Shown here piece by piece: positions 3,243 through 19,432 of a stretch of DNA of 20,000 nt (position 1 is the first letter of the stretch; every line of letters begins with the position of its first letter). Below the pieces are notes generated by a model. It saw only the letters and a list, made by a program, of their open reading frames with translations, made no database searches and was not told where the DNA came from. Position numbers and translations under genes: made by a program. Source of the stretch: an uncultured virus (IMG/VR IMGVR_UViG_3300020577_009925) (taxonomy: Duplodnaviria > Heunggongvirae > Uroviricota > Caudoviricetes). The stretch lies in IMG/VR virus record IMGVR_UViG_3300020577_009925. One strand, written 5' to 3'.

Positions 3243-3257
3243 AGACAGCGCTGTCGC
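3243..3257 (+). repeat. Dispersed palindromic element AGACAGCGCTGTCGC, copy 1 (inside a 30-bp inverted repeat, 3235-3264)
   Basis: Exact 15-mer; intergenic, upstream of the MazG-like gene. Confidence 0.9.
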
Positions 3258-3303
3258 AACCCGCTCACTTGCTTCTGGACCGCCTGTGGCGACCATCCGT
3301 TTG

Positions 3304-3888
3304 TTATTGGTCCGACCTACGGCTAGGGTGACCAACTGGATAATCAAATGCTCCGCAGTTCTCCTGCCAGCACAGAGGTATCCTACCGCTGATTACCTTA
3401 TCGTAGCTTTCGTCGAAGTGCAACGCCTTGACCCGCCCTAAATAGCCTGTTGCGGTCTGACAAACCGTAAACTCTACCCTTCCTAACTTTCCGTCAGGAC
3501 GCCTAAGGGTGACTACGGCCGCCGTAAATGGCGTATCCATCTTGTCAACGTGCAAAGTTACAACATAAGTGGGCGGATTATGTTTTCCGTCACTGAGAAC
3601 CCCGGTTTCAACCAGGTGTGGATGCTTATCCAGCGGTGCAGCTTCCTGCGGCGAGTATTCTCTTAGCGGGAAACCGTCATCAACAACCTCAGTTGTCGCT
3701 TCGTCAACGATCAGAACAATTCGAGGATCGGTCATTCCAAGTTCGGGCCTGGCCTCCCAATTCTGGAACAGCTCATCCTTCTCGTACATCAGCTTGACCT
3801 TGGCAGCGCATTCCTCAAGCGAACTGGCGCTAACCTCCGTGGTTCCATAGCAAGAACAGTCAAATGCCCAATCAACTAGGAACTTCAC
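3304..3888 (-). CDS. Hypothetical protein (probable start GTG 3888, MKFLVDWAFDCSCYG...)
   Basis: GTG 3888 with AAAGGTGG SD overlaps the upstream gene end by 17 nt; the ORF-track start at 3978 implies an unnecessarily long overlap. Confidence 0.7.
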   Translation of the reverse strand: MKFLVDWAFDCSCYGTTEVSASSLEECAAKVKLMYEKDELFQNWEARPELGMTDPRIVLIVDEATTEVVDDGFPLREYSPQEAAPLDKHPHLVETGVLSDGKHNPPTYVVTLHVDKMDTPFTAAVVTLRRPDGKLGRVEFTVCQTATGYLGRVKALHFDESYDKVISGRIPLCWQENCGAFDYPVGHPSRRSDQ

Positions 3889-4408
3889 TGCTGCCACCTT
3901 TGCCAATCTCGATCTTCTCCCAGCCGCAGAAACCCGTCTGATCGATGTAGACCTCACTAAGCAAGTCAGGTCGGCCAATCTCAGCAGCGAACTCAGCTAC
4001 AACCTCAATGGCCTTGCCCTTGCTCAGCGGCTCGTCGTCATAGTGAGTCCAGATCTTCTCAGTGAACTTCTGACCATCGGGACGAGCAGCATCAATACAC
4101 CAGCCATCACTATCCTGCTCGAAGATGCGAATACGCGTTGCCTCCGATGGTTGGATGTAACAGTCGAGGCTGTTCTGAAGCTCGTCGTTCATCTCCTGCA
4201 GGAACATCTCACTGGAGTCTTTGATCAACTTGTTGAAGTCGATCCGTCGCTGCGCACACCAGTGAATGCAGTTGGTCAGGAGATCGGAAACAACAACCTT
4301 TGGATTGTGCTCTAGATCTCCTGCCACGTCCGCCTTAGTCACCTTCGCAAACGTCTCTAGGGCCTGGGCGAAAAACCCAGCCCTGTCCTGATTGGTTATC
4401 TCACTCAT
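3872..4408 (-). CDS. Hypothetical phage protein (N-terminal NQDRA...SDLLTNCIHWC...IDF helical domain)
   Basis: ATGAGTGA coupling with the methyltransferase stop; 178-aa open frame. Confidence 0.8.
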   Translation of the reverse strand: MSEITNQDRAGFFAQALETFAKVTKADVAGDLEHNPKVVVSDLLTNCIHWCAQRRIDFNKLIKDSSEMFLQEMNDELQNSLDCYIQPSEATRIRIFEQDSDGWCIDAARPDGQKFTEKIWTHYDDEPLSKGKAIEVVAEFAAEIGRPDLLSEVYIDQTGFCGWEKIEIGKGGSSEVPS

Positions 4409-5267
4409 TGCTGCTTTCCAAGGTTTTGACCTTCAAGAGTCTTTTCTGAATCACGGCTGCCTGCTCCTTGCGAAGCTCAATACTGATACTCGACCGTCCG
4501 TGCTTCTTAGCCATAGCTGCCGTTGTACCTGATCCTCCAAAGACATCCAGGACGATGCCGTCCGGGGGACAGTAAATCTGCACCATCTGCTCAGCCAGCC
4601 ACTCTGGATACGGAGCCTCGTTTTCATTGGAGAGCTCGTCACCCATGTGGCCGCCGCCAACTGCGCCACACCAGAAGATGTTGCCTACGTTTACCTTTTC
4701 CGGTGGCTTGTAGTCGGTCTCGGAGATATTGCGTCCGCCGTCTTTACGCCTAGGTCTGGTTCTACCTCCAGGTGCGAACTTCGGCGGTTCTCCTGTTGCA
4801 GTAGGGTCAATCCACGCTGTTTTAGGATCGCCAACTGCGCAGATAATGAACTCCCAATTGTTGCGGAGCACCTTGAAGCGACCAGGAAGCGAGTACCGGC
4901 CGTAGATGGCGGGTTTACACATCTTGATCCCCATCCGCACAAGGTCTGCATGCAGTAGGATAGGTTCAGATGTGTAATGCATACTCTGCATTCCAGCGCC
5001 TTCAATGACCCAGCAGACCATTCCTCGAGTTACTCGCAAGCACTCGAGGAATCGCACTTTAGCCCATTCAACCCACTCCTCGCCTTTGAGGTTCCACCCG
5101 ATGCCTAGGTCCCGCTGAGCCGCATAAGGGGGACTACAGATCGTTGTCGACACGCTTTTGGATTCTCGCTTCTTCAGCCAGTTCAAGCAGTCGTCAACAA
5201 CGATTTCGTGTATCTGCACACCTTCTAACTTCGTTCCCTTGCCAGCTCTCGATGTCGGTTTACTCAT
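4401..5267 (-). CDS. Orphan beta-class amino-DNA methyltransferase (N4-cytosine or N6-adenine)
   Basis: Motif IV SPPY near the N-terminus, then EAPYPEWLAE and motif I VLDVFGGSGTT near the C-terminus; no neighbouring endonuclease-like gene. Confidence 0.9.
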   Translation of the reverse strand: MSKPTSRAGKGTKLEGVQIHEIVVDDCLNWLKKRESKSVSTTICSPPYAAQRDLGIGWNLKGEEWVEWAKVRFLECLRVTRGMVCWVIEGAGMQSMHYTSEPILLHADLVRMGIKMCKPAIYGRYSLPGRFKVLRNNWEFIICAVGDPKTAWIDPTATGEPPKFAPGGRTRPRRKDGGRNISETDYKPPEKVNVGNIFWCGAVGGGHMGDELSNENEAPYPEWLAEQMVQIYCPPDGIVLDVFGGSGTTAAMAKKHGRSSISIELRKEQAAVIQKRLLKVKTLESSNE

Positions 5268-5464
5268 TCTCGCATGAACCCCAGAAAGTAATGTTCCTTG
5301 GCGGGCCCAAGTCTAAACGATGCAGACGGACTGCCGCAGATCTCTTGAGCCTCCTCCAATGTATACGTCTCTTCTCCGAATCGCTCCCGCGGCTTGCCAG
5401 ACTCGGGCGACCAGAACTTCATGATGATGTAGCGGTCCTCTTCGTCTTCATCGTAGTCACTCAT
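5264..5464 (-). CDS. Small hypothetical phage protein (66 aa; YIIMKF...TLEEAQEIC...YFLGF)
   Basis: ATG 5464 in ATGAGTGA overlap with the upstream stop; ATGA overlap with the methyltransferase start. Confidence 0.75.
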   Translation of the reverse strand: MSDYDEDEEDRYIIMKFWSPESGKPRERFGEETYTLEEAQEICGSPSASFRLGPAKEHYFLGFMRE

Positions 5465-5936
5465 CGCTGGTATCCACTTGATGCAATGACTGTTCCTCCA
5501 AAAATGTCCGCACGTGTGCAGGTCCATACTTTGCGGACAGCGCTACTGCTGTCACCATCGCGAGTACCGCATCGGGATCTTCCCACTCAGTGGACTCCCA
5601 CATGCAGACCTCACCCTCGCCGTCGATAACGTGCACCGATTCATGGGTCGTGAAAACCCCTGGAACCAACTCATGCAGGCCGTTAATGAACTCCCATACC
5701 TCAGGGTCAGTAACAATGACCACATTCTTCGTGCTGAGGTAGTTAACGATATCCGTCTGCATCTGGCCTGCAGCGTGGGCATCAACAACCAGGGAGCTAT
5801 GCAAGCATTCCATCAAACCTGAGTTGATAGCTACAACGTGCCCCGTTGATGTTGGGTAAGTCTTGACCTCAACTCGCTTGATCCCGTCATCAACCATCTG
5901 ATCGAGCATCAGACAAATGTGATTGGCTAGTGCCAT
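5457..5936 (-). CDS. Hypothetical protein
   Basis: ATG with AGGAGA SD; 159-aa ORF in the coupled array. Confidence 0.8.
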   Translation of the reverse strand: MALANHICLMLDQMVDDGIKRVEVKTYPTSTGHVVAINSGLMECLHSSLVVDAHAAGQMQTDIVNYLSTKNVVIVTDPEVWEFINGLHELVPGVFTTHESVHVIDGEGEVCMWESTEWEDPDAVLAMVTAVALSAKYGPAHVRTFLEEQSLHQVDTSDE

Positions 5937-5949
5937 AGATTCTCCTATT

Positions 5950-5964
5950 GCGACAGCGCTGTCT
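5950..5964 (-). repeat. Dispersed palindromic element AGACAGCGCTGTCGC, copy 2
   Basis: Exact 15-mer on the minus strand, in a 32-bp intergenic gap just upstream of an AGGAGA SD. Confidence 0.9.
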
Positions 5965-5968
5965 CACG

Positions 5969-6352
5969 CTACCAGTCAATGTTGATTAGATACTCACCGG
6001 CTTCGAGCTTGCCCTGAGCGTGCAGGTCATTGGCCACCATCTCTAACATCGGATAGTAGTTCCGCTGCCAAAATATGGCAACCTGCCAATCCTCAAGGCC
6101 TTCCCCGACACTGGCCGGGTCGCAGTTTTTCCAAACGTCAAACTTCACACCCATTTCATCGCCATTAACTTCGATTGGAATCGACTCATTCTCGTAGTCT
6201 TCGGCATCGGGGCATGGAACCGTCAGAGTCACCGTCCCTCGCTGTTTACATCCATCTTGCTGCTGCAACGCGTAGGTTCGGCCGTAGTTCTGCTCTACAA
6301 AATCATCCCAGTCGCTGACTTCAACAACACGTGTCAAGGTGTACTTGAGCAT
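5969..6352 (-). CDS. Hypothetical phage protein (DWDDFVEQNYGRTY...QQQDGCK...AGEYLINIDW)
   Basis: ATG with AAGGA SD; 127-aa ORF. Confidence 0.8.
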   Translation of the reverse strand: MLKYTLTRVVEVSDWDDFVEQNYGRTYALQQQDGCKQRGTVTLTVPCPDAEDYENESIPIEVNGDEMGVKFDVWKNCDPASVGEGLEDWQVAIFWQRNYYPMLEMVANDLHAQGKLEAGEYLINIDW

Positions 6353-6741
6353 GGTGGTTCCTTAGAAAAGAGAATTCTTGCTAGTTCTTGAAAATCCGTC
6401 GCGGGCACATAGATCTTAACTCGCTCACCTAGGTCAAGCTCGTCCACTCTCTGCCAAAACTCCTTGTCAGTTACACGTGAAAGTGATTCCAGCAAGCGAA
6501 GCATCGACGGCGAGCTGTCGCAATCTAAAATCGAACAGCCCAAGAGCTCTTCAGTGCTGTACTCTCGAACTGCACCTATCAAACTAGGCTGCTTAGTTCC
6601 GCGGCTCCACTGAACCTGCCACTTGTCACTTGTGGAAACATCTCGGTGAGCAGTCCCCGTGTGACCAACATCGACCCAAAAAACATCGCCTACTTCGTCA
6701 CTAACCTCGTGCGGCTTGACGCACAGTACCTTAAAAGCCAC
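6334..6741 (-). CDS. Hypothetical protein
   Basis: GTG start overlapping the upstream TAG (TAGTG), GGAGGA SD. Confidence 0.75.
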   Translation of the reverse strand: MAFKVLCVKPHEVSDEVGDVFWVDVGHTGTAHRDVSTSDKWQVQWSRGTKQPSLIGAVREYSTEELLGCSILDCDSSPSMLRLLESLSRVTDKEFWQRVDELDLGERVKIYVPATDFQELARILFSKEPPCSSTP

Positions 6742-7529
6742 TACAGTCCTCCTTCGAGAGAATCGATTGGATGCTGGTTACACGTCCCCCAGTAACGTCG
6801 TTCGTCTCCTCGCATCATCAGCAAATGCGAGATCACGTCATCAGTCGGTGCCATCGCGCCAGCCCATGTTCTGGCGTAATAGCCAATCCCATGCCAGCAA
6901 AGGCACACCAGCGGTCTAACTGGCTCATTGCCACGGCTGATGTACGCCACCGTTGGCTTGTTCTTTCGGAAGTTGTACAGAATGCCACTTCGAGCACTGG
7001 TCTCGATGAAGCTTCCGTTGACAACGTAGAGGTCAAATAGGTGCTTAGGAATCAACTCGGAAAGCTTTTGCATCGCCTTGAGCTCCGCCTCTGCGCTGAT
7101 CTGTATTTGACAGCAGAACGTCTTGATACTCATCGACGCGCGGCGAAGGGCAAACGCGTTAGGTACAACAACATGCTTGGTCTTATCGCTTCCGGGCTCT
7201 CGGTAGAGATAGATCTCTCGGCCCCTGCTATCGACCCAAAGGTTAACAACCTCACAATCTCCGTCACGAGCCACCTGCTCAAACGCCTGCTCCATGAGCT
7301 TGGTATGACGGTAGATATCGCCTTGGCCAACATCACCGTCACCACCCATTTTCGCCAAATCCGGATACGGAAACCGGTCACTGAGCATTAGCTTGGCGGT
7401 ATCGCAAGGAAGTGGATACCCGAAGTAGTGCTCTCGCTCGATGGCCAGATTACGCATTAACTCCCGGATATCACTCCAGGTGGGAAGATTATCCTCCTGC
7501 TCGGATTGGGACGCTTGTGACTTTGACAT
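6741..7529 (-). CDS. Enzyme-like hypothetical protein, partner of the upstream GG-terminated protein
   Basis: Probable start ATG 7529 (or 7457). C-terminal half has ETSARSGILYNFR, CLCWHGIGYY, PTDDVISHLLMMRGDE and CNQH, a cluster of Cys/His/Asp/Asn residues. Confidence 0.75.
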   Translation of the reverse strand: MSKSQASQSEQEDNLPTWSDIRELMRNLAIEREHYFGYPLPCDTAKLMLSDRFPYPDLAKMGGDGDVGQGDIYRHTKLMEQAFEQVARDGDCEVVNLWVDSRGREIYLYREPGSDKTKHVVVPNAFALRRASMSIKTFCCQIQISAEAELKAMQKLSELIPKHLFDLYVVNGSFIETSARSGILYNFRKNKPTVAYISRGNEPVRPLVCLCWHGIGYYARTWAGAMAPTDDVISHLLMMRGDERRYWGTCNQHPIDSLEGGL

Positions 7530-7872
7530 CAGCAGCCGGTACAGACTTCTTCCTGCCCCTCTTACCCTTTTTCGGAATCGCGTTGGGATTTGGCGGCGGT
7601 CCGAGATTTGACTCCGGTACATCACTATCGGCCGGCTTGGGTGGTCCCTGAGGACTATCCGAAACGTCTGCGATGATGTAGCTGTCGGTGTTAGCGTCAA
7701 AGTCTAGAATCCTTGTTGTTTTTCCCTCAATGTCTGCAAAGAGAATGCAGCCGCTTCGAAGGAGCGTAGTTACAGCCCGTCTGGCACGCTCAAGCTCGAT
7801 AGGATCAGCCTTATCAAACTTGAGCGTCAAATGTCCGTCGCCCACTGATAAAATATCTAACGTTCCACTCAC
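7489..7872 (-). CDS. Small protein ending in C-terminal di-glycine (…VPIRAGG*), candidate ubiquitin-like/sulfur-carrier-like modifier
   Basis: GTG 7872 in GTGA overlap, GAAGGAAG SD; compact beta-beta-alpha-beta-like N-domain, Pro/Lys-rich insert, terminal hydrophobic strand followed by GG and the stop. Confidence 0.75.
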   Translation of the reverse strand: MSGTLDILSVGDGHLTLKFDKADPIELERARRAVTTLLRSGCILFADIEGKTTRILDFDANTDSYIIADVSDSPQGPPKPADSDVPESNLGPPPNPNAIPKKGKRGRKKSVPAADVKVTSVPIRAGG

Positions 7873-8300
7873 TGGTCTTCCTTCACGCTCGTAGTTAATA
7901 GCTTGGCGATCTTCGTAGCTAACGCATACTGCCTCTTGTTGATCGCCGCATCCTGCCTTGTAGTTAGGTGCATGATCCTGCAAACTTCATGCTCGTTGAT
8001 GTCCACCACCTTCAAATGAGCTTGAGGCGCTGCGTCTGGGTCAGACATATCGTCAAACCAGCCATTCACAGCAAACGGAGGCTCATAATCATTAAGGGGG
8101 TCGTCCGGAAACAACTGATAAGCGAGCATCGCAGCAAACACCACCTGGTTGCCCAGATGCAAACAGGCTTTTGCTTCTTGCTTCAAAGCCTCTGGATTAA
8201 CCAACTCTTCAGCAGAACAGGTGGTCTCAAACGTATATTTCCTCCACGTTCCGTCAGCATACGCAATACCGACAGTAGTCTTTCCCTTACGATTACTCAT
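7869..8300 (-). CDS. Hypothetical protein
   Basis: ATGA overlap, GGAGG SD; 143-aa ORF. Confidence 0.8.
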   Translation of the reverse strand: MSNRKGKTTVGIAYADGTWRKYTFETTCSAEELVNPEALKQEAKACLHLGNQVVFAAMLAYQLFPDDPLNDYEPPFAVNGWFDDMSDPDAAPQAHLKVVDINEHEVCRIMHLTTRQDAAINKRQYALATKIAKLLTTSVKEDQ

Positions 8301-8731
8301 GTCACCTCCCAGGGTCTAATAAGTTCAACACCCTCCTGCGTCGCATCGGATCGCTCCAGCAGTAAACGATAGCCGACGTGATATCTCTGCGGAGAGTGAG
8401 AGAAAATCGTCGCATCTGGCTCCAAGTTGTTGGGGTCAGAAGCTAGATAAGCCACAACCCGGTCCCGGAACTGCTTTTGAGTTCGCCAACCTGACATCTC
8501 ATTCTCCAGCTCCGCCTGCTGCTGCCTGGCTATCGATTCAACGCTACCACTGTAACGGCGGTCCTGAACCTCTTCGATCGTTGGTGGATCACCACAATCG
8601 TACAGCGTTTCTTCGAGTCGCTCTTTGAGAACAGCACGGCAAACCTTATCCATCTTCGCTGACGTCGATACGTTGTAGTACACCGGATCACTGTCCGTCT
8701 TAAGCATCAGCACAGCAATCTGCTTACTCAT
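8297..8731 (-). CDS. Hypothetical protein
   Basis: ATGAGTAA overlap; 144-aa ORF. Confidence 0.75.
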   Translation of the reverse strand: MSKQIAVLMLKTDSDPVYYNVSTSAKMDKVCRAVLKERLEETLYDCGDPPTIEEVQDRRYSGSVESIARQQQAELENEMSGWRTQKQFRDRVVAYLASDPNNLEPDATIFSHSPQRYHVGYRLLLERSDATQEGVELIRPWEVT

Positions 8732-9113
8732 CTAGCGAGTCCCTAATTGGATGGCCAAACTGCATCCCAGCCAGTTGCACACTGCAAACAGCATCGTGGA
8801 AAAACAGCGGAAACTCCTTCGCGATGTAACCGGCATCAACGAACTCAAAGAACAGCTGTTTCATCGCAGCTTCATCAGCGTCCTTAGGCTCTTGCTCCCG
8901 CCACTGCTGAAGATTACGTCCTAGTGGAATACAGGCACAGTCATAATTGACCAGCATCTCGTAAACCATGTCCTCAAGTCGAAGCCGCTCCTTCGCCATC
9001 GGCGTGTCCCATTTGACACAGGCAATGAGCAGCTCATACGCCTTCTCACTTGGACGAATAGTCGGCAACACCCGCTCCGCGTTCTCGTCCGTATCGTAGT
9101 AATGTCTACTCAT
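8724..9113 (-). CDS. Hypothetical protein
   Basis: ATGA overlap, GGAG SD; 129-aa ORF. Confidence 0.75.
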   Translation of the reverse strand: MSRHYYDTDENAERVLPTIRPSEKAYELLIACVKWDTPMAKERLRLEDMVYEMLVNYDCACIPLGRNLQQWREQEPKDADEAAMKQLFFEFVDAGYIAKEFPLFFHDAVCSVQLAGMQFGHPIRDSLDE

Positions 9114-9844: not shown

Positions 9845-10036
9845 CTATCCAACCCAATCTTGGTCGATGATCAGATCACCATCGTCACACATCAAAGAGA
9901 CCCCCTGAGGATTTCCTGGCTCTTCTCCATCGTTCTCCGCGGACACTGCCGCCTGCCATTTTCTAACGGCTTCAGCGTAGTTCTCTGCAACAACGAATCC
10001 TGGGCGATCTGAATCCTGCACGTGAAATAGTGGCAT
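9845..10036 (-). CDS. Small acidic hypothetical protein
   Basis: ATG with AGGAGG SD; 63 aa. Confidence 0.75.
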   Translation of the reverse strand: MPLFHVQDSDRPGFVVAENYAEAVRKWQAAVSAENDGEEPGNPQGVSLMCDDGDLIIDQDWVG

Positions 10037-10285: not shown

Positions 10286-10982
10286 TGGTTTGATCTTCCG
10301 ACTCTTCTACGACAGTGCCGTCGACGGTGACGCCAATGGGTGACGTTCCCAAGTACAAATGCCCGCCAGCTACGTCTTGCACTGCAGCCAGAACGTTGGC
10401 GTAATGCTCTGGGTTAGCAGCCAGCGTTTTGGCAGTAAACGCCGCCAGCAGTTTCGAAGCCATCTCGTCGCGATCGGCGATCATCGCCTCTCGCTCAGCA
10501 ATGTAGCGGTACGCTGCGTTGTCCTGCTTGATCAGCGAGTTATAAGCTGCCCGTTTAGCTTCTGGCACTGTATACGTGGCCTGTAGCTGAAGACCTTCGG
10601 CTGCCGCCTCGAAACAATCAGACAGCTCAACACCGTTAATGTCGACGCAGTTACCGTCATCGTCTGTTTCGATCGCAACAAAAATCTTTACGTTACCATG
10701 CGGCTCAGACAGAGACAGCGAGTAAAACCCGATACTCCAATCGGCGAACTCGTCATGGAACTCACACAGTGCCTCCATGACTGACACAAACTTCGCCGAA
10801 TATCGTTTGGTAATATCAGCCTTGATCTCGAGGTTCAACTCCTCTCGCAAGGTCTCTATCTGCGATCGCAACTGCTCTCGCTCTCTCGACTTAGCTTCGA
10901 TCTCCAGCTCCAGCTCGGCAACTCGCTGCACTACGAGCAGGTTTACGACCTCGCTGTTCCCAATTTGAATATTTAGACTCAT
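10275..10982 (-). CDS. Hypothetical coiled-coil protein
   Basis: Heptad-rich N-terminal segment (ELELEIEAKSREREQLRSQIETLREEL); 235 aa. Confidence 0.75.
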   Translation of the reverse strand: MSLNIQIGNSEVVNLLVVQRVAELELEIEAKSREREQLRSQIETLREELNLEIKADITKRYSAKFVSVMEALCEFHDEFADWSIGFYSLSLSEPHGNVKIFVAIETDDDGNCVDINGVELSDCFEAAAEGLQLQATYTVPEAKRAAYNSLIKQDNAAYRYIAEREAMIADRDEMASKLLAAFTAKTLAANPEHYANVLAAVQDVAGGHLYLGTSPIGVTVDGTVVEESEDQTSGD

Positions 10983-11017: not shown

Positions 11018-11031
11018 AGACAGCGCCGTCT
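11018..11031. repeat. Variant of the palindromic element (AGACAGCGCCGTCT, one mismatch in the 12-bp core)
   Basis: Core GACAGCGCCGTC at 11019-11030 lies immediately downstream of the stop of the 406-aa gene, in an intergenic gap. Confidence 0.6.
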
Positions 11032-12251
11032 TAGATGTGGCAATCGACAATGGTGAGATAGTGATCGTTTGGAATGCTGTCGAAGATCTGCTTGAAAACC
11101 TTCGGCCAATCCTCAACCTCGTTGGTTGAAGTTCCAAACCAACCCATCTCACCGTTTTGCATCCACTTTCCGTCTTTGACAACCGCCCAAACCGTTAGCG
11201 GCTCGGCCTGCCGCACCCACTGCTCAATCGTCTGGCCCTTCAGCTCAGGCAATTGCCAAGTGGATTCCCAAACGTCTGCTGCGTACTTGGCGTCTTCAGG
11301 AAGCCACTCCAAGAACATGGATCGATAAGCACCGCCCTTAGGTCTTTGATCCTCTGGCAAGGCCTTCCAGATCTCATGATGCTCCTCACACAGATGAATC
11401 GCCCGCTCCATCTCTGGTCGCGTGACAACTCGCTGTTTCTTCTTGAGCACCTGGTCAATGCAGTCATCGAGCCACTTGTAGCCGTTGGACATCTGGAGGG
11501 CGTGCATGGCGTTGATATCCAAATCTCCCTTGCGGGAACTATCACAACGGCCCGGTATCCGTCCGTTGATGAAACCTGGATAGATCATGTCGATGATGTT
11601 GACAATAGCCTGCTCAAGTGAGGACGACGCTCCGCAGGGAGCGTTGCTGATGAACTTGCCGGTGTAACGCCCGCCAACACTCCACCAATCCCACTGGGCG
11701 TTAGGATTGGTTCGCTTGATGACTCGTTGAACATCGCCGTTTTCGTCCAAACGGATGTAGCCGTACTTATGCTCCCCATCCAATTCTGGAGACTCAGCAG
11801 TCGCAATCGACTCATATCCTGTGTTACTGATCACGAACTCCAAAAACGTCATCGCCTCGTTTAACTTCTTGTCAAGCTCAATAGCACCTTCTGGCAAGAA
11901 GTGAACTCTCGCGGCGTAGCCTCGGCCGTCACCCCAATCACGACTGGTCCAAAACAAACCATCGCCTTGCCCAGTTCCGGCGATCGGTCCGATCTTCTTG
12001 GACTCCTCTTCTGTCGGCACGCGAAAAAACTGATCATCCCATTTGACGTGCTCAGTGCCGTCAGCCAGCCGAATCATCGGCTGCGTCTCCCTCTCGTATT
12101 CATCCTGAAGCGATTGGGTTCGGTCTACGTCTACAACATATTCATTTCGCACACCAGTGCACTCGAACTCGTGATACGGTCCAAGCACCTTATCGAGAAC
12201 CTTACCTGTTGGCGGCTCACTGGTGACGACTAGAACTGAAAAGTGGCTCAT
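11031..12251 (-). CDS. Phage hypothetical protein (MSHFSVLVV / NPNAQWDWWSVGGRY / GEMGWFG / VDCHI type)
   Basis: Trp/Gly-rich motif blocks recalled from an uncharacterised phage protein family; ATGA overlap, GAGGA SD. Confidence 0.85.
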   Translation of the reverse strand: MSHFSVLVVTSEPPTGKVLDKVLGPYHEFECTGVRNEYVVDVDRTQSLQDEYERETQPMIRLADGTEHVKWDDQFFRVPTEEESKKIGPIAGTGQGDGLFWTSRDWGDGRGYAARVHFLPEGAIELDKKLNEAMTFLEFVISNTGYESIATAESPELDGEHKYGYIRLDENGDVQRVIKRTNPNAQWDWWSVGGRYTGKFISNAPCGASSSLEQAIVNIIDMIYPGFINGRIPGRCDSSRKGDLDINAMHALQMSNGYKWLDDCIDQVLKKKQRVVTRPEMERAIHLCEEHHEIWKALPEDQRPKGGAYRSMFLEWLPEDAKYAADVWESTWQLPELKGQTIEQWVRQAEPLTVWAVVKDGKWMQNGEMGWFGTSTNEVEDWPKVFKQIFDSIPNDHYLTIVDCHI

Positions 12252-12664
12252 TGTTTAGAGTCCTCTGCTAAATCTTCTTTGATCGAGGCAACCGTTCTTT
12301 CAAGACGGGCCAGGCTCTCCCGTCGCTCCTTCAAAATTCGCTCCGCCTGATCAATGGATGACCGGGCCAACTGAAGCTGCACGTCGTAGAAGGCGATTCT
12401 GGCCTTCCGCTGGTCTGGATAGTACTCACCGTCAAACCAGTCAGTAATGCTGCGATCATGGTGGTCTACGTCTAGGTAGTCAACAAAGCGAATGTGATCG
12501 CCTCGATGACAAACCAGAAGCTCGATCCGACCTTGGGCGCCAACACCGTGATCAGCCCTCAGCTCATACATCACGTGGTCCTCATACTGGCGGACCCCGA
12601 TAACGGAGAACTCCAGTATGTCCATACAGCAAGGTCGCCAAAGCCTGTCCTTGCATTTAAGCAT
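12248..12664 (-). CDS. Hypothetical protein with C-terminal coiled coil
   Basis: Likely start ATG 12664 (ATGCTTAA overlap with the upstream stop); the ORF-track TTG 12715 is less likely. Confidence 0.7.
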   Translation of the reverse strand: MLKCKDRLWRPCCMDILEFSVIGVRQYEDHVMYELRADHGVGAQGRIELLVCHRGDHIRFVDYLDVDHHDRSITDWFDGEYYPDQRKARIAFYDVQLQLARSSIDQAERILKERRESLARLERTVASIKEDLAEDSKQ

Positions 12665-13445
12665 TTCCATCAAGAAGCTCCGTTTGTGGGCCTTTGAGTC
12701 GACTGGCCTGCTCAAGTCCCATCGTGTGCAGCATCAAATCAATCTGCGCTGCAACCTCAGTCCGGACCTGCTGAACCGTCTCCTCCATCTGCTCCTCCAA
12801 CAACGTCTGCACAAAGGCGAAGTTCTTGGGGATATTTCCCAAACGACAGTCCAGCTCATGAAGAAGGGCTGTAACCTCTTTGAGCGTCGGTCGCTTGCCC
12901 TCTCTTTGCCAATTGGCAACGGTATTCCGGATGTTGAACAGCGATTCGATAGCATCGCGACCTGCCGCTTTGATCCGCTCGGACGCGTCGTTAACGTCAT
13001 CAACAAGATTCTCCGGCCCTTCAATCATCTCACCGCAGAAACGCCCAAGTGTCGCCGGAACACCCTCGCCACCAAAGGACGTGATAAGGGTAGCGAACTG
13101 AGAGGCTGTCATGTACACCGTGATTATCGTGCCACTCTCGTAGAGCCTGCGATTGCTACCGTCGCGGATGATCTCCTGAGCAGTATGAATGCTCAGCGAT
13201 ACATAGTGCTGGTGATTGACCCTTGACTGCCAGAGCACCGCACCACTGCTGTGCGTGCGATTGAGCCTGACTACCGCCTGGTAAGGGGCCTCGATTCGAG
13301 TCTGCCCCTTATCGTCTACCGTTGTGCTGTGGGGCTTTACCGCTGCTCGATACGACCGGAGCTCTTCAAACACCGCCTGAGCCTGGGCGGCGGTCAGCTT
13401 GTTAGCCGCCACCGCCTCCAGTGGAACAAGCTTAGGCTGGGGCAT
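12657..13445 (-). CDS. Phage hypothetical protein (…VYMTASQFATLITSFGGEGVPATL…)
   Basis: 262-aa ORF overlapping the upstream stop; motif recalled from uncharacterised phage proteins; helical C-terminal half. Confidence 0.8.
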   Translation of the reverse strand: MPQPKLVPLEAVAANKLTAAQAQAVFEELRSYRAAVKPHSTTVDDKGQTRIEAPYQAVVRLNRTHSSGAVLWQSRVNHQHYVSLSIHTAQEIIRDGSNRRLYESGTIITVYMTASQFATLITSFGGEGVPATLGRFCGEMIEGPENLVDDVNDASERIKAAGRDAIESLFNIRNTVANWQREGKRPTLKEVTALLHELDCRLGNIPKNFAFVQTLLEEQMEETVQQVRTEVAAQIDLMLHTMGLEQASRLKGPQTELLDGNA

Positions 13446-13788
13446 CAATATTCGCCCCAGGTAGTGCCTTCTCAGCCAATCGAGCTGCGCGACGAAGCTG
13501 CCTCATCTTCCGATTAAACTTCCATCGCTCCCACCAGGTCGAACCAGTGCGGCCCTCCCGGATTCCTCTCACCAAGTCCCGCAATCGATTAGCCCAGTAA
13601 TGAGCACGATTGGCCTGCATCTTAAACTCGAACATGGCCGCAGCCAGCGAGTTCTTGATGATGGCGTTTTCCTTCTCAAGCTCTTGGCAGCGGCGATTAA
13701 GTCGCTGATTGGTTTCCACCATCTGCTGCCGAGTAGCTGAACAAAACTTCCAACCTTCTTGAGGCTTTTCCTTTTGAGTTTTACCCAT
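13432..13788 (-). CDS. Hypothetical basic coiled-coil protein
   Basis: ATG with AAGGAGAG SD; 118 aa. Confidence 0.75.
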   Translation of the reverse strand: MGKTQKEKPQEGWKFCSATRQQMVETNQRLNRRCQELEKENAIIKNSLAAAMFEFKMQANRAHYWANRLRDLVRGIREGRTGSTWWERWKFNRKMRQLRRAARLAEKALPGANIDAPA

Positions 13789-13805
13789 TACTCTCTCCTT
13801 GTTTA

Positions 13806-13820
13806 AGACAGCGCTGTCGC
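13806..13820 (+). repeat. Dispersed palindromic element AGACAGCGCTGTCGC, copy 3
   Basis: Exact 15-mer in a 36-bp intergenic gap between a TAG and an AAGGAG SD. Confidence 0.9.
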
Positions 13821-13824
13821 TGAA

Positions 13825-14088
13825 CTACGTCTTGGCCCACTTGAGCAAGTCAGCAATCTTCTGTTTGCCGACAGCCTCTCCATCGAAGCGGCCTATATGA
13901 TAAACCGCCCGAACCAGTTGTTCCACCTGGCGATGCAACTCAAGGTTGTAGGCTATCTCTTTGGTGGTCCTAATCGACGGCATGCTGTTGCCGTTGACCG
14001 AGATATTCATGACGAAAACGTCTGGCGGATCTTCGTCACTACCCTCGCCAGGCCATATGGAAACCCTAGGGTTCTCGTTTTTGCTCAC
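13825..14088 (-). CDS. Hypothetical protein
   Basis: GTGA overlap, GAGGG SD; 87 aa. Confidence 0.7.
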   Translation of the reverse strand: MSKNENPRVSIWPGEGSDEDPPDVFVMNISVNGNSMPSIRTTKEIAYNLELHRQVEQLVRAVYHIGRFDGEAVGKQKIADLLKWAKT

Positions 14089-14321
14089 ACGAACCCCTCG
14101 ATGTAATCCCGCATTTGCTTCTCGGTATTGAGCAACCCATTAACCAACAGTGGGAATCCCAAGTCCTGAATTATGGCCTTGAGATCGCGAGTTCCCTCAT
14201 GCTTCATCACGTCACTGGAAAAGGAATCAAACGCCTGTCGATAATCACCAGCCTCAACATACTGCATCGCCCTGTCCTTGCACCACTGAAGGTGCTCGGC
14301 CCTTGTCATTGGCTCTTTCAA
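14085..14321 (-). CDS. Small phage hypothetical protein (RAEHLQWCKDRAMQYV...KHEGT)
   Basis: Coupled to both neighbours by 4-nt overlaps; helical motif recalled from phage hypotheticals. Confidence 0.8.
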   Translation of the reverse strand: MKEPMTRAEHLQWCKDRAMQYVEAGDYRQAFDSFSSDVMKHEGTRDLKAIIQDLGFPLLVNGLLNTEKQMRDYIEGFV

Positions 14322-14779
14322 CTTAGCTTCCTCACCAGCTTGTCAAGCTTCTTGGCGATCTCTTTGGCTCCGACAATGAGCGTCTTCAGCTCTGTAGCTG
14401 CAGCCTTCTTTGCCATAGGCTCACGAGTTGGCACTGGTCGTTTCCACGCCGCACGTTTGCCCTTCTTTTTCTTCTTGGGCGGAAGTTTCTTTTTAACCTT
14501 CACCTCCTTGGGCAAGTACATCGCGTGATCAGGCAAGATCGTGATATTCGCCTCTGGATTTCCCGGTGTTTGGTGATCAGACAGATCCACCGCATAAGCG
14601 AAGCGGCCGACTTTGGCATAAGGTGCCAGATTTCCCTCAAGATCGTAAAAGGGCCCACAACAGCCGTCCGTCCTGGGCAAAATAGTATTCAACTTCTCCA
14701 GTCGATACCGCCCCAGGTCATACGTCTCGCCCTGGTTAGTTCCCTTTGGAAAGGTGTACACGCGAATTAAATCGTTCAT
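14318..14779 (-). CDS. Hypothetical protein with Lys-rich C-terminal region
   Basis: ATGA overlap, AAGGAG SD; KVKKKLPPKKKKKGKR tract. Confidence 0.75.
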   Translation of the reverse strand: MNDLIRVYTFPKGTNQGETYDLGRYRLEKLNTILPRTDGCCGPFYDLEGNLAPYAKVGRFAYAVDLSDHQTPGNPEANITILPDHAMYLPKEVKVKKKLPPKKKKKGKRAAWKRPVPTREPMAKKAAATELKTLIVGAKEIAKKLDKLVRKLS

Positions 14780-15381
14780 TTCTCTCCTTTGTTTTTGATT
14801 CCTAGTTCTTCATTATCCAGCTGAATGGCGCGGGCGAGCCAGAGTAGTGCCTGCCTGACACGCCCGTGACGTCCGCCGCCGATCCCTGTCCTGCAGCGAA
14901 TGCTGGGTAGTGGATAGGGCTTGCTACCTTCGTTCTGCACGTTCTCCCACTCCTGGGCGCTCAAGTGACAGTCACCGTCAGTAGCAACATATACCGAGAA
15001 ATAGGTAGCCTCGTTGGAGCCCTTGTCGTCGCAGTAGAACGTGTAGGCGTGGTTCATCTGCAGCCCCTCAGGCCACTGCGGACTGAGCACAAGGTTGTCT
15101 GGGGGAAGGCGATCACAGTTTACGTCTAAATACGCCAAGTGATCGTAACCCGCGAAGTCTGGAGGCTCGTCAGCATTGACAGCTAGATATATTCTTGGCT
15201 TATCGTCTTCGTCTTCATCGTCTTCATCCTCATCGTCTTCGTCGTTGTCCTCATCAAAGACAATCCCGCTGACTGGGATCATCTCAAAGGACTTCATCAT
15301 CGTCAAACCGACAGCAACCTCTTCAACAAGCTGCTCGTCGGTCATCTTCTGCGCAGCCCTCAGCACATCAATCCACCGCAT
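14776..15381 (-). CDS. Hypothetical protein with internal poly-acidic tract
   Basis: 201-aa ORF; DEDNDEDDEDEDDEDEDD tract. Confidence 0.75.
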   Translation of the reverse strand: MRWIDVLRAAQKMTDEQLVEEVAVGLTMMKSFEMIPVSGIVFDEDNDEDDEDEDDEDEDDKPRIYLAVNADEPPDFAGYDHLAYLDVNCDRLPPDNLVLSPQWPEGLQMNHAYTFYCDDKGSNEATYFSVYVATDGDCHLSAQEWENVQNEGSKPYPLPSIRCRTGIGGGRHGRVRQALLWLARAIQLDNEELGIKNKGEK

Positions 15382-15676
15382 CAGGTAGTTCTCCTACAGG
15401 TAATTGCCCAATCGCACAAACAGTTCCTGAAGCCAAACCGTTGATCGTAAACGGCGTCTCCATCAGTGTTCTACACGTGTTGTTGGGCCCATAAGCCAGA
15501 ACATACATCCGTCCAAACTGCGAAGAACCCATCAACTGGTTCTCCAGCAGCATCCAGCCCTCAGGACTAAAGTTAGACTTCTGAGCCTGAAGAACCATCA
15601 AGAGCGACTGTGGATCACTATCCTGTCGCTCGCAGTACTGCTGAGCCAACTCCTTGAAAGTCAGGTTTGGAATCAC
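15368..15676 (-). CDS. Hypothetical protein
   Basis: GTGA overlap; 102 aa. Confidence 0.7.
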   Translation of the reverse strand: MIPNLTFKELAQQYCERQDSDPQSLLMVLQAQKSNFSPEGWMLLENQLMGSSQFGRMYVLAYGPNNTCRTLMETPFTINGLASGTVCAIGQLPVGELPDAVD

Positions 15677-16332
15677 CGCGGCATCTTCTTAGTTGGAACT
15701 TTCTTACCAGGCCTAGCAGAAACGACCTTGGTACCAGGCTTGACCTTAGGCGGCGGGAACGCGGCGACGAGTTTCTGCATCGCTGGACCAGCCTTATCCA
15801 TCTTTTGCCTAACCTCGGTGAACATTACAGACAGCGCTGTCGCAAACTCAGCCAACTCCTTCTCCAGCTTTTCAGAGTACGGGTGCTCGTCCAGATAGCT
15901 GAGATCTTTGGAGCCCTCGCACCAGCCAGGAATCAAGCTATCAAGATGGGTGTAACGAGCAATACCTCTGACGTCGGATGTCAGTACCCGCTTCTCATAC
16001 ACGCCAGCAACAAACCCGATGCAAAGTCGCGGAGCAAAGCTTATATCGTTGTCGTGATAGTGCTTACCACCGATCGTAGCGTTGAGATTGCCGCTGACCT
16101 GACACAAAATGACCTTCTCCGTCTTGGTAGTACTGGTAAGGTACCTACTGACCGCATCCTGGTACCTTCGAAGGACCTCCTCCTTAGTCGTGCCAAGGAC
16201 GCTTTTCTGGTCCAGCATGTCTACGACCGGCGATGGGAGTTCAGCGCTAAAGCGACCCGCGGCGTCGCACTTGATCACCCGCTTATACGTCTGACCGGCT
16301 ACCTGGACATTCTCCGTGCTAATTATTGGCAC
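15673..16332 (-). CDS. Hypothetical protein with basic C-terminal tail
   Basis: GTG start with AGGAGG SD; 219 aa. Confidence 0.75.
   Translation of the reverse strand: MPIISTENVQVAGQTYKRVIKCDAAGRFSAELPSPVVDMLDQKSVLGTTKEEVLRRYQDAVSRYLTSTTKTEKVILCQVSGNLNATIGGKHYHDNDISFAPRLCIGFVAGVYEKRVLTSDVRGIARYTHLDSLIPGWCEGSKDLSYLDEHPYSEKLEKELAEFATALSVMFTEVRQKMDKAGPAMQKLVAAFPPPKVKPGTKVVSARPGKKVPTKKMPR
15829..15843 (+). repeat. Dispersed palindromic element AGACAGCGCTGTCGC, copy 4 (intragenic)
   Basis: Exact 15-mer within CDS 15673-16332, encoding ATALS. Confidence 0.85.
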
Positions 16333-16859
16333 CCGTTACCTCCTATGAGTGAATCGATCGATCTGTCAAATCTGTTCTTGACCAGGCTCTTGCCCACACT
16401 TCTAGAAGTCATGAGCTGCACCTTGCCCACTGTTGGAAACTCCGGACTAGGAGTCCAATTAGCTAGGCAAGCGACACCGGTCTTGCACCAATGCAAAAAC
16501 GCCTCCAACTGACCGTCATGAAGCTGCTTGAGGCCTCTAAACCTATTTCTCACGTAGGCCTTCGCTGATTCTTCTGAACTGCACTGCGCCACGCCGCACT
16601 CAAAGGGTTCGATCCACTTGTTAGCCCAGTCGAACATCGCAAACCGGCACGCCCACCCGTCAACTCGTCGCTCCAGATCGTAAAGCCCGTATTCGAAATC
16701 TGGAGGACGAACAATCTTCTTAGCCCGATGAGCCTCTTGGACAACAAGTAGCTCTTTGGGGCCTAACTTAGCTCCATGCTGCTGACAGCAAAGAACATAG
16801 TTGTACTCAAAGCACCCAACAGCTGCGTACTCAAAACCCGGTTCCCACTCAAACGCCAT
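16323..16859 (-). CDS. Hypothetical protein
   Basis: TAATG overlap; 178 aa. Confidence 0.7.
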   Translation of the reverse strand: MAFEWEPGFEYAAVGCFEYNYVLCCQQHGAKLGPKELLVVQEAHRAKKIVRPPDFEYGLYDLERRVDGWACRFAMFDWANKWIEPFECGVAQCSSEESAKAYVRNRFRGLKQLHDGQLEAFLHWCKTGVACLANWTPSPEFPTVGKVQLMTSRSVGKSLVKNRFDRSIDSLIGGNGCQ

Positions 16860-17353
16860 TACAGAGTCCCCTGCTTACAAACTTCGGCCAGAAGCTCCTT
16901 ACGCGTCGTTTGCATCGATTTGAGGTTCCGCCGAAGCTTAGCCTCCTCCTTCCAAACGTCATGTAGCTGACAAGCCATCACCTTAATCTCTTCATTTGGC
17001 CAGCCATGTCCAGTGACGCATAAGTGCGGGTTAGTCCACTCGACGCAGCGGTCGTCGGCCACAAAACCAATGGTCTTTGACAGAGCGACCGGCAGTCCGT
17101 CTTGTTTGGGCATCTCAACCAAGAGCGACTCAAAGACCAGTACCTGCAGCATCGGATGTGCATGCTCTTCAGCTAAGTACCGCTTACTCCACTCTCGCAG
17201 ATTCTCCGACCACATGTTGCACAGATAAGGCCCGTCAACAAGCGAACAGTAGTTTCCATAGTCCATCGGATAAGGACCGTCACTAACACCAACGCACGAC
17301 TCCATTCCGACAATCGGCTCGAAGTACTTAAGTTCCGCTTTGAACGTCTGCAT
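16859..17353 (-). CDS. Hypothetical protein
   Basis: ATG with AAGGTG SD; 164 aa. Confidence 0.75.
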   Translation of the reverse strand: MQTFKAELKYFEPIVGMESCVGVSDGPYPMDYGNYCSLVDGPYLCNMWSENLREWSKRYLAEEHAHPMLQVLVFESLLVEMPKQDGLPVALSKTIGFVADDRCVEWTNPHLCVTGHGWPNEEIKVMACQLHDVWKEEAKLRRNLKSMQTTRKELLAEVCKQGTL

Positions 17354-17618
17354 AGCCAGGCACCTTTGTTAAGTCATGGGAAATGTCGTAAATCACTCGC
17401 GTGGTTAAGGACTTCACCACCGCCGGTCTGCCGCTAGGGCTCATCAAAAACATCTGGGCCATTGCCAATGCGTGGCCGTACACCTCAAACTGCGTGGCTT
17501 CATTGATATTGCCGGTAACACCAACAGTATTTGAAGCGTCTATACGCAAGTACTCATCCAACCCCTTTTCTCTTGGCGGGTTGGGATAACAGACTATTGC
17601 TCGGACGACGACTGACAT
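17328..17618 (-). CDS. Hypothetical protein
   Basis: ATG with AGGAG SD; 96 aa. Confidence 0.7.
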   Translation of the reverse strand: MSVVVRAIVCYPNPPREKGLDEYLRIDASNTVGVTGNINEATQFEVYGHALAMAQMFLMSPSGRPAVVKSLTTRVIYDISHDLTKVPGYADVQSGT

Positions 17619-18229
17619 TTGATTACTCCTGTATCAGCAACAGCGTAGCATGGCCCAGTGTCGACAAACCTTGGGTCCCAAAGAACGCAACTTGTGTCCA
17701 ACAGCACAAGCTTCTGCAGGGCATTGAAGTTTCGCCATACGTTAACTGCAAATGCACTCATATCGATCTCCGATACCGTGCACTTGCATCTAACCTGAAT
17801 GTCCGTCGTCTGTGTAAGCAGCCACTGAGTTCGAGTGTCCGCGTCATAACAAGCAAAAATCGGCTTGTTCTCCAGCTCCACCATGTACACCGTGGTTGTT
17901 CGTCTAACTGGAGCCTCCGCCTTGTTACCCTCGTGCCACCGATGAACCTCCTCAAACATCCGACTATCTGAGAGCTTGCTGTGGCACAGCAGGCCGCCCA
18001 AAGAATCTCGGCAAATGAATTCCGGCTTATCAGTATCCCACTCCCACAAATGATCGTTCATAGTCCCGCGACGATAGGCGATGACAAACCTAGGGTTAAC
18101 GGCAAGAATCACCAAAACCGGCGCATCAAAACAAGCTGTCCAGAAATCACCAGGCTGCGGATTCTCGATATGGTAATCTCGCTTGGCGGTCTCCCAGTCC
18201 TTAGCTGCATATGTCTTGTTCACACTCAC
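17594..18229 (-). CDS. Hypothetical protein
   Basis: GAGGTG SD before GTG start(s); 211-aa ORF. Confidence 0.7.
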   Translation of the reverse strand: MSVNKTYAAKDWETAKRDYHIENPQPGDFWTACFDAPVLVILAVNPRFVIAYRRGTMNDHLWEWDTDKPEFICRDSLGGLLCHSKLSDSRMFEEVHRWHEGNKAEAPVRRTTTVYMVELENKPIFACYDADTRTQWLLTQTTDIQVRCKCTVSEIDMSAFAVNVWRNFNALQKLVLLDTSCVLWDPRFVDTGPCYAVADTGVIKCQSSSEQ

Positions 18230-18270
18230 CTCAACTTAAAAACTGCCGAATATGTCTTGTTCTACGTGCT

Positions 18271-18507
18271 CTAAACCGTGAACGCGTGATCAAAATGATC
18301 AGGCCTGTACCTTGCAAAACAAACCTGACATTCCCAAAACGAAGGTCTTGGAGGCCAGACTGTCTTACCCACACTGGACGGGTAGATAGCGTGTATATCT
18401 GTTGACCCACAATTGCACGCAAGCGCCGTAGAACAATGCAACGGACATGAAGCCCCAACAACGTCACTTGGCACTTCCTTGGAACCGCCCGTAATCTCTT
18501 CAGTCAT
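18271..18507 (-). CDS. Small Cys-rich, probable Zn-ribbon protein
   Basis: ATG with GGAGAG SD; CNCG...WECQVC. Confidence 0.65.
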   Translation of the reverse strand: MTEEITGGSKEVPSDVVGASCPLHCSTALACNCGSTDIHAIYPSSVGKTVWPPRPSFWECQVCFARYRPDHFDHAFTV

Positions 18508-18537
18508 AATCTCTCCAATCGTCGCTATCGTTTATGT

Positions 18538-18969
18538 TCACCTCGACTTAAAAAGAGCTGAATAGTACCAACGTCCAGATGCCTCACTTCGCTTAGACCA
18601 GAACGCCATCAGCGGCCACTCTTTGTGTGGCGGCAAGATCTTGTCAGCAGTGGGCTCGTCATAGTGAAATCCGTACGCGTGGTAATAGCCTGTTGGAGGC
18701 AAGTTACCAGACAAGCGAACCGAATTCTCGCCTGCCTCTACCAACGCTTTATCTCTATCAACCATGGCCGTAACCTCCCTGGCGCAAAACGACTCTGCGT
18801 CTGCGATCGATAGTTCGGGTAACCGCTCTACCGATAGCTGTATCGGCGGCTTGGCCTTGGAGTACTCCGCCTGAAGAAATATCCCAGCCAGCATCAAGCA
18901 GACTAACACGCAAATGAACAGCACAAAGACCACTAAATCGTAACCTGTAAACTTGCTGGCCATGCTCAC
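18538..18969 (-). CDS. Membrane-anchored protein, paralog of 18966-19406 and related to 1934-2443
   Basis: N-terminal TM (LVVFVLFICVLVCLMLAGIFL); PPTGYYHAYG...SGRWYYSALFKSR. Confidence 0.8.
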   Translation of the reverse strand: MSMASKFTGYDLVVFVLFICVLVCLMLAGIFLQAEYSKAKPPIQLSVERLPELSIADAESFCAREVTAMVDRDKALVEAGENSVRLSGNLPPTGYYHAYGFHYDEPTADKILPPHKEWPLMAFWSKRSEASGRWYYSALFKSR

Positions 18970-19406
18970 CTTCTCCTGTAAAGAACTGAGTAGTAAGTCC
19001 TTGGGGACTCCATATTGCGGTCAATGAAATAACTCACCAGCTGATAGTTCTCACCTGACGACTCCATCTTCGAAATGCTCACGTGCTGCAAGCTGTACCC
19101 GAACTTATGGTAGTAGCCCGCTGGTGGAAACGTTCTAGCAAGCAGCTTTGGCTCTTCGCCGTCCTGGGTCGCCTTGCGTTCATCGACAAGCATCTGAAGA
19201 ACTTGGGCCCTGACGAACTGGTTTACATCAAAGCTCTTATCAACCTCGTCATCGCTCTGTGAAACCTCAACTACCACGTGAGCGTCGGGACGTTTAGGTC
19301 TGACCCGTAGCATCGCCAGCACGACGACAATCGCCACTACAACAACAAACGCTGCAACCTCACCAATAAGCGAAAGTGCAGCGTCAGAAAATTGGAACTT
19401 GGACAT
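18966..19406 (-). CDS. Membrane-anchored protein, paralog of 18538-18969
   Basis: N-terminal TM (VAAFVVVVAIVVVLAML); PPAGYYHKFG...RTYYSVLYRRR; AGGAGAGG SD. Confidence 0.8.
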   Translation of the reverse strand: MSKFQFSDAALSLIGEVAAFVVVVAIVVVLAMLRVRPKRPDAHVVVEVSQSDDEVDKSFDVNQFVRAQVLQMLVDERKATQDGEEPKLLARTFPPAGYYHKFGYSLQHVSISKMESSGENYQLVSYFIDRNMESPRTYYSVLYRRR

Positions 19407-19417
19407 AGCCTCTCCTC

Positions 19418-19432
19418 GCGACAGCGCTGTCT
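19418..19432 (-). repeat. Dispersed palindromic element AGACAGCGCTGTCGC, copy 5
   Basis: Exact 15-mer filling the space between TAA (19433) and the SD in a 26-bp intergenic gap. Confidence 0.9.

Follow-up and report, generated by a model that had tools for sequence, protein, structure and literature searches.

Phage-wide sets of short DNA sites are known, among them the C1 operators of the temperate phage P1, and here we compare such sets with a 15-bp palindromic element that recurs in a 20,000-nucleotide stretch of an uncultured tailed phage (IMG/VR record IMGVR_UViG_3300020577_009925; Caudoviricetes). This whole stretch is referred to as the window, and the analysis covers this window. The stoperators of cluster A mycobacteriophages (L5, TipsytheTRex) are described as asymmetric 13-mers that lie in short intergenic spaces genome-wide, bind a monomeric protein that carries two DNA-binding domains, lose their function when reversed and are oriented along the direction of transcription (PMC9283540). 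In the Bacillus prophage SPbeta, the 15-bp element SPBRE occurs in about 10 intergenic regions and is bound by the master repressor MrpR; it had been predicted in silico decades before the binding protein was known (PMC10516654). T1-like phages (T1, Stevie) carry a 22-bp, mainly intergenic repeat in 16-20 copies, whose function is given as unknown (PMC4319613). With the stoperators and the SPBRE/MrpR pair of SPbeta as analogues, phage-wide operators of such size are an established kind of element.

The element, AGACAGCGCTGTCGC, is present in five exact copies in the window, at 3243-3257(+) (site D), 5950-5964(-) (site B), 13806-13820(+) (site C), 15829-15843(+) (site E) and 19418-19432(-) (site A). 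With two or fewer mismatches allowed, the 15-mer gave 7 matches against 0.07 expected, and 0/200 shuffles reached 7; the two extra matches are opposite-strand readings of the first two copies. The core, GACAGCGCTGTC (GACAGC/GCTGTC), is a perfect 12-bp even palindrome with a central CG, and it is the only one of the 4 distinct perfect 12-mer palindromes in the window that recurs. A core variant with 1 mismatch, GACAGCGCCGTC, lies at 11019-11030 (site F) with flanks A...T rather than A...GC, and a 2-mismatch match at 10311 is within chance (1.3 expected at two or fewer mismatches). A repeat search returned the same motif family and, apart from acidic-residue codon repeats, no other dispersed repeat of note. 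The symmetry ends at 12 bp: in all five copies, positions -7/+7 are A/G and positions -8/+8 are variable/C. Each site is a hybrid in which the half-site AGACAGC, which is of the host type discussed below, is paired with a different one, GCGACAGC; homotypic copies do not occur, and the hybrid is present in both orientations. Identity extends further in some pairs, with 19 nt shared by sites B and D (inverted), 17 nt by B and E, and 19 nt at 95% by A and C, and AA after the 15-mer is common to B, D and E. These longer identities within the groups B/D/E and A/C fit the copying of one 15-19-nt unit. The asymmetry may be explained by such copying or by an asymmetric binder that works regardless of orientation, and the two are not exclusive. 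The preliminary description of this DNA had reported five exact 15-mers far beyond chance, a perfect 12-bp palindrome with constant A...GC flanks, a variant at 11019-11030 and 19 bp shared by copies 1 and 2 in inverted orientation, and each of these statements was reproduced.

We then considered where the copies lie. All plausible genes of the window are on the minus strand; 41 open reading frames (ORFs) were modelled, most of them abutting or overlapping by 1-25 nt, and in this model 366 nt of the 19,645-nt array (1.9%) are non-coding. The variant and four of the five exact copies are intergenic (binomial P for at least 4/5 exact copies = 6e-7), in gaps of 26-95 nt. Site A (19418..19432, minus strand; forward on the coding strand) is directly 3' of the TAA of an 82-aa ORF and directly 5' of the ribosome-binding site GAGGAGAGG of a 146-aa ORF (ATG 19406). 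Sites B (5950..5964, minus strand; likewise forward) and C (13806..13820, plus strand; reversed on the coding strand) occupy gaps of 32 and 36 nt, respectively, and each lies 4 nt past a TAG. The ribosome-binding site that follows is AGGAGA, 3-4 nt away, for B (159-aa ORF, ATG 5936) and AAGGAGAGAG, 5 nt away, for C (118-aa ORF, ATG 13788). At these three sites the gap thus consists of stop codon, 0-4 nt, motif, 0-5 nt, ribosome-binding site and start codon. The longest gap (95 nt) holds site D (3243..3257, plus strand; reversed), with 34 nt between it and the ATG (3208) of a MazG-like gene. Site F (11019..11030, core variant read on the plus strand) directly follows the TAA of a 406-aa ORF, 36 nt before ATG 10982. 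The one intragenic copy, site E (15829..15843, plus strand; reversed), is inside the 219-aa ORF 15673-16332, in frame as A-T-A-L-S. For the intergenic sites, the distance from site centre to the following start codon is 19, 21, 25, 42 or 42.5 nt. Transcription has a single direction; with respect to it, the flanks of two exact copies are forward (A, B) and those of three reversed (C, D, E). With such minimal spacers between a stop codon and the next ribosome-binding site, the sites divide the array into blocks of 2 to 13 genes, within which genes overlap. The placement first noted from the sequence alone, with five of six sites in rare gaps, three just upstream of a Shine-Dalgarno sequence and one copy inside a gene, therefore stands, now with a tested enrichment. 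These results indicate that the motif is a real, highly non-random, intergenic operator-like palindrome.

Transcription signals and RNA structure were assessed against shuffled sequence. The results showed 11 sigma-70-like promoters in the window versus 13.9 in shuffles and 18 intrinsic terminators versus 16.1, none of which coincides with a site. Local RNA folds at sites A (z = -0.56), B (0.00), C (-0.30), E (-0.35) and F (+0.40) were no better than shuffles, the minimum-energy structures at these five sites held no consistent motif hairpin, and a U-tract was absent from all five and weak at D. The sole significant fold among the sites was at D, where the motif forms the tip of a 30-nt palindrome (3235..3264, minus strand; followed by CCUUGUUACUU) that gives a strong hairpin as RNA (-27.4 kcal/mol, z = -5.0). 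A search of the window for Rfam families gave no match. Mixed orientation together with the lack of RNA structure at five of six sites points to a double-stranded DNA site for a dimer and not to a promoter, terminator or RNA hairpin; the preference for a double-stranded DNA site bound by a dimeric protein over a promoter, proposed at the outset, is thereby the best-supported reading. Several candidates were rejected. A promoter is contradicted by flanks that point both ways and by the 0-5 nt to the ribosome-binding site, which leave no room for a downstream start site, and an intrinsic terminator as a general reading by z about 0 and no U-tract at five of six sites. The 15-bp site is too long for a restriction or methylation target. 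T5-type nick sites and N4-type hairpin promoters served as further comparison types; the palindrome would be cut on both strands in the former case, and the mixed orientation and the number of copies, which is too high, argue against the latter. Elsewhere in the array there is a textbook intrinsic terminator at 1850-1925 (minus strand), in the 89-nt gap 1845-1933 after a 175-aa ORF, with a 14-pair G+C-rich stem and a 5-nt loop followed by UUUGCGUUU (-35 kcal/mol, z = -6.7). Host-type termination signals thus exist in the array, unlike the motif in form.

Compared with the described phage-wide sites, the motif resembles stoperators in that both consist of many near-identical 13-15-bp sites in short intergenic spaces (here four of five copies and the variant, in 20 kb examined), and stopping of an elongating RNA polymerase, proposed for stoperators, is also the working model here. 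However, stoperators are asymmetric, monomer-bound and tied to one orientation, whereas the phage motif has a palindromic core and lies both ways, so that membership among the stoperators, to which the sites had initially been likened, fails on two defining features. SPBRE is likewise a 15-bp intergenic repeat of a large phage, but SPbeta is temperate and has the repeat at its promoters, where a phage-encoded protein of recombinase fold binds it, whereas here neither promoter nor binder was recognised in the window. The 22-bp repeat of T1-like phages is also mainly intergenic, in a lytic phage; it differs in being asymmetric and in having one direction relative to transcription.

A close match in sequence was found among operators of bacterial repressors. 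Motifs of the LacI family are described as mostly even palindromes, with a central CG in 1173/1303, and as lying typically at -140 to -30 relative to the start codon and rarely in coding sequence (PMC4052901). The phage core shares the even palindrome and the central CG with these operators, but its symmetry of 12 bp is shorter than their symmetric length of 16-22 nt. For GntR, the LacI-family gluconate repressor of Pseudomonas plecoglossicida, DNase I footprints have been reported on PgntR, PgnuK and PgntP; the PgntP footprint includes the perfect palindrome AGACAGCGCTGTCT, and the published consensus is AG-N2-AGCGCT-N-TCT (PMC12195362). The phage sequence AGACAGCGCTGTC is identical to AGACAGCGCTGTCT at 13/14 bases. 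The 12-bp core, the even palindrome and the central CG are common to both, and the phage motif fits AG-N2-AGCGCT-N-TC; it agrees with 11/12 specified positions of the footprint consensus, the final T being G in all five copies. For CcpA, also of the LacI family, TGACAGCGCTGTCA has been used as a synthetic site (PMC10992428).

One Pseudomonas genome has two copies of AGACAGCGCTGTCT, separated by 579 bp. The first is in the spacer that divides a divergent LacI-family gene from a gluconokinase-like gene, and the second is in the spacer from this kinase gene to one for a GntP permease; the host site there directly follows a -35-like TTGACA. The palindrome was found in 51/121 Pseudomonas genomes versus 0/121 for the reversed control, with pairs 578-582 bp apart in eight genomes, and 0/250 further genomes from the class had it. 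The operator is thus conserved and, in the genomes sampled, restricted to a single genus. Bacteria with this operator carry 1-2 copies per 6-Mb genome, compared with at least 5 per 20 kb in the phage. The resemblance of the core to LacI/GalR operators, remarked on in the preliminary description from its central AGCGCT, has accordingly sharpened into identity at 13/14 bases with a footprinted, genus-conserved operator of that family.

On this evidence we regard the motif, with slightly better than even confidence, as a predicted docking site for a dimeric repressor, that is, a roadblock or operator between gene blocks. Judged from its sequence, the motif would be bound by a protein, and the binder may be the LacI-family GntR of the host or a phage protein encoded outside the window; the roadblock effect is likewise a proposal. 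In the proposed mechanism, a dimeric helix-turn-helix repressor of LacI-like design would dock on double-stranded DNA sites dispersed along a long run of small phage genes that lie on one strand and mostly overlap. The bound protein would stop or slow RNA polymerase reading through the array, or would cover promoters of an unrecognised kind, and an effector, or titration as phage DNA multiplies, would release the repressor so that later blocks are expressed.

Several observations weigh against this proposal. A symmetric dimer gives no reason for flanks A...GC that are invariant in 5/5 copies, and copies that are identical in 5/5 cases vary less than is usual in real operator sets. Half-site position 7 is A in 6/6 half-sites of the three published footprints, as given for PgntR, PgnuK and PgntP (PMC12195362), and the right half-site of the phage differs; all five phage copies end in G and then C where the host operator has T. 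The phage-type 14-mer occurred in 17/401 Pseudomonas genomes versus about 26 for the reversed control. Host GntR sites overlie a -35/-10 promoter, whereas the phage sites lie between genes of the array, 19-42 nt before start codons, with no TTGACA-like hexamer, and no recognisable promoter was found at any site; their centres also tend to lie closer to the start codon than is typical of the LacI family. Since a 12-bp palindrome has only 4096 forms, chance agreement with some operator among the hundreds that are characterised is not a rare event, and we put the probability of such a coincidence, as a rough estimate, at 7-25%. No helix-turn-helix, LacI, ParA/ParB, recombinase, repressor or polymerase domain was detected in the 41 ORFs with Pfam and PHROGs, as the first reading, which saw no cognate regulator, had found. 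Comparison of the window with 401 Pseudomonas genomes by BLAST gave 16 weak matches of 33-63 nt, 14/16 of them in acidic-repeat stretches, and no spacer or prophage match; stretches that code for Asp/Glu runs align spuriously with the DNA of many genomes. The exact 12-mer was absent from five Pseudomonas phages that have a gene in common with the window. In IMG/VR, the perfect 14-mer occurred in 40 contigs with one copy each, and no contig had more than one.

A phage-encoded binder of the LacI family was also considered. Searching 50,697 phage records with the GntR protein by tblastn gave 131 matches, which, grouped by the leading word of the organism name, comprised Listeria (48), Bacteriophage (44), Salmonella (17), Enterococcus (11), Escherichia (6) and Staphylococcus (5), with 0 from a Pseudomonas phage among the 131 records matched. 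The best 20 of the 131 were bacterial assemblies or unannotated records of at most 22.8 kb, with no complete annotated phage genome among them. The lack of a Pseudomonas-phage match argues against a phage-encoded LacI-family binder.

The more specific possibility that the phage array is wired to host carbon metabolism, its sites being near-copies of the candidate host GntR operator, is one that we put forward tentatively and consider doubtful. Without glucose or gluconate, host GntR on phage DNA would block read-through between blocks, so that the infection would be gated by nutrients and resemble hibernation. The array would be opened by gluconate or 6-phosphogluconate, or else the multiplying phage genomes would soak up the few repressor molecules, and this titration would also switch on the host genes for gluconate uptake and kinase, fuelling the infection. 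A full-text search for the 12-mer and a search on host transcription-factor sites in phage genomes returned no published description of a lytic-type phage with an operator array for a host sugar-acid repressor; among the literature matches listed, the only host transcription-factor sites in phages were the LexA boxes of GIL01.

Phage-wide operator sets are known from a few temperate phages, in which a phage repressor silences the prophage; here, the palindromic layout stands in the probable early or middle array of an uncultured phage. If the host repressor binds, the sites would give the phage a simple, testable way of reading the nutritional state of its host, titration could re-programme host sugar-acid uptake, and the motif would also serve as a marker for host prediction, and the interest of the finding would rise considerably. 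Binding by a phage protein would mean that the sites define a regulon and a block structure across the 41 genes. With either binder, the sites are exact coordinates for mutational and footprinting tests.

The docking-site reading has to be set against explanations that need no repressor. The motif might act in RNA, as a hairpin by the ribosome-binding site that serves as a translational operator, as an RNA-processing site, or as a stabilising or terminating structure. The position of three copies 0-5 nt before a ribosome-binding site would suit this, as would a hairpin core that is identical in either orientation and the strong terminator-like hairpin topped by the motif at site D. We consider it quite improbable, because the folds at the other five sites are indistinguishable from shuffles, the core alone makes only 4 pairs round a 4-nt loop, one copy is intragenic and two are 34-36 nt from the start codon, no Rfam family matched, and the true terminator of the array at 1850-1925 is quite different in its 14-pair stem, U-tract and z score. 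A genome-organising or partition site (parS/matS, or a dispersed centromere of the N15 type), or a promoter for a phage-encoded RNA polymerase, appears very improbable. The palindrome is dispersed and of the right length for ParB-type or MatP-type proteins, and since no host-type promoter is recognisable in the 20 kb, some unknown signal must drive transcription. However, genes for ParA/ParB, SopA/SopB and RNA polymerase were not found in the 41 ORFs of the window, so that the parS/matS comparison, made earlier alongside that with stoperators, finds no support in the window as family membership. Centromeres are not known to be laid out in this way, with sites every 2-5 kb in the narrow space from a stop codon to a ribosome-binding site. 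A single direction is expected of a promoter for a phage polymerase, which is at odds with flanks in both orientations and a symmetric core, and only 0-5 nt separate site and ribosome-binding site.

A further explanation, which we judge unlikely, is that the motif is a copied mini-cassette or recombination joint, in which a 15-19-nt unit is pasted either way at gene junctions or provides microhomology for module shuffling, with no need for regulator binding. Such cassettes or joints have been proposed for the PeSL cassettes of T4-type phages and for REP-like elements. Copying would account for asymmetric flanks that are identical in five copies and both orientations, for the subfamilies of longer identity among sites B, D and E and between A and C, and for gaps that hold little more than the motif and a ribosome-binding site. 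In variant contigs from four metagenomes, which are 0-12% different from the window, one diverged variant had 5432-5968, comprising site B and the next gene, replaced, one breakpoint (5969) being at a distance of 5 nt from this site. Genes were gained or lost cleanly, in contrast, at motif-free junctions: variant X8 lacks a 140-aa gene (12248-12670; breakpoints 12257/12651, with 12 other letters instead), and variant X13 lacks a 63-aa gene (9845-10036; breakpoints 9832/10073, with 25 letters instead). These clean single-gene losses at junctions indicate gene-by-gene turnover in the array. In X13, 4398-4825, which overlaps the methyltransferase gene, is also replaced by 655 other letters. Among about 30 breakpoints listed, one was beside a site versus about 0.4 expected by chance; this is chance level, and the earlier suggestion of a recombination site through which modules are gained and lost is not supported, only 5969 being beside a site. 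Near site D, a ~10% diverged variant has five small indels at 3208-3227 and 3273-3279, and none inside the 30-nt palindrome among the differences listed, a pattern compatible with conservation.

The wider distribution of the motif bears on the same question. The 15-mer occurred in 39 IMG/VR contigs with one copy each and gave at least 120 matches in genome contigs, with a single copy per contig in the 80 matches listed, which argues that it is not a host repeat or uptake sequence. Mobile palindromes of the REP or MITE kind are, by comparison, multi-copy and accompanied by a transposase; the motif was multi-copy in no scanned genome or viral contig among the matches listed, and no transposase, RAYT or homing-endonuclease gene was detected in the 41 ORFs with Pfam and PHROGs. 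At 15 nt, the motif is also much shorter than known REP and MITE elements. The 19-mer of sites B and D had 5 exact matches in genome contigs, where about 4 are expected, and is thus at chance level; four of these five were in metagenome-assembled Chloroflexota genomes, an odd taxonomic clustering despite the chance-level count.

The remaining content of the window was examined with Pfam and PHROGs. Its GC content is 52%, its GC skew is steadily negative, and no tRNA genes were found in it. A recognisable function was assigned to three of the 41 genes, all on the minus strand: a DNA methylase (4401-5267; Pfam PF01555, E = 2.7e-23; N6/N4 DNA methyltransferase), a MazG-type pyrophosphohydrolase (2465-3208; Pfam) and an AAA ATPase (457-1698; Pfam). 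The methyltransferase appears as an orphan, with no restriction partner visible in the window. PHROGs matched six further families of unknown function. The relatives of single proteins are distant (22-50% identity) and come from large phages of Pseudomonas, Vibrio, Aeromonas, Erwinia, Caulobacter and others; this scatter indicates that the window is a piece of a novel tailed phage, which is probably large, and the window looks like an early or middle gene array. Megablast of the window gave one low-complexity match among phages and none among plasmids. For the 406-aa ORF, scans of IMG/VR gave relatives at 31-40% identity only and scans of genome contigs none; in metagenome contigs there were relatives at 31-40% identity and fragments of 19-32 residues at 53-84%. 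The AAA ATPase had no relative in a protein-seeded scan of IMG/VR, and the 219-aa ORF that holds site E had no homologue but itself in 5.8 billion proteins searched for matches of near-full length, its one record being on a 24-kb contig.

Among the smaller proteins, that of 118 aa encoded after site C has a very basic pI of 10.9 and is coiled-coil-like; an Atlas search with it gave scores <0.9 only, to unnamed or leucine-zipper-like clusters, which are a lead at most. Extreme tails were seen in the small proteins 19684-19926, 14776-15381, 15673-16332, 14318-14779 and 7489-7872, two with Asp/Glu runs and three with Lys/Arg/Pro-rich C-termini. None of the 19 sequencing runs listed with the window or close variants is an RNA run; they are metagenomes of rivers, wastewater, sludge and digesters. 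Three of the runs contain 97-99% of the sampled words of the window, and others, among them those of variants X8 and X13 and run X12, are 2-12% diverged. Site A is followed first by 18966-19406 (146 aa) and 18538-18969 (143 aa), both on the minus strand, which are adjacent paralogues (28% identity over 87 residues, E = 2e-14) that each carry a hydrophobic N-terminal segment and a PP.GYYH...YYS.L motif.

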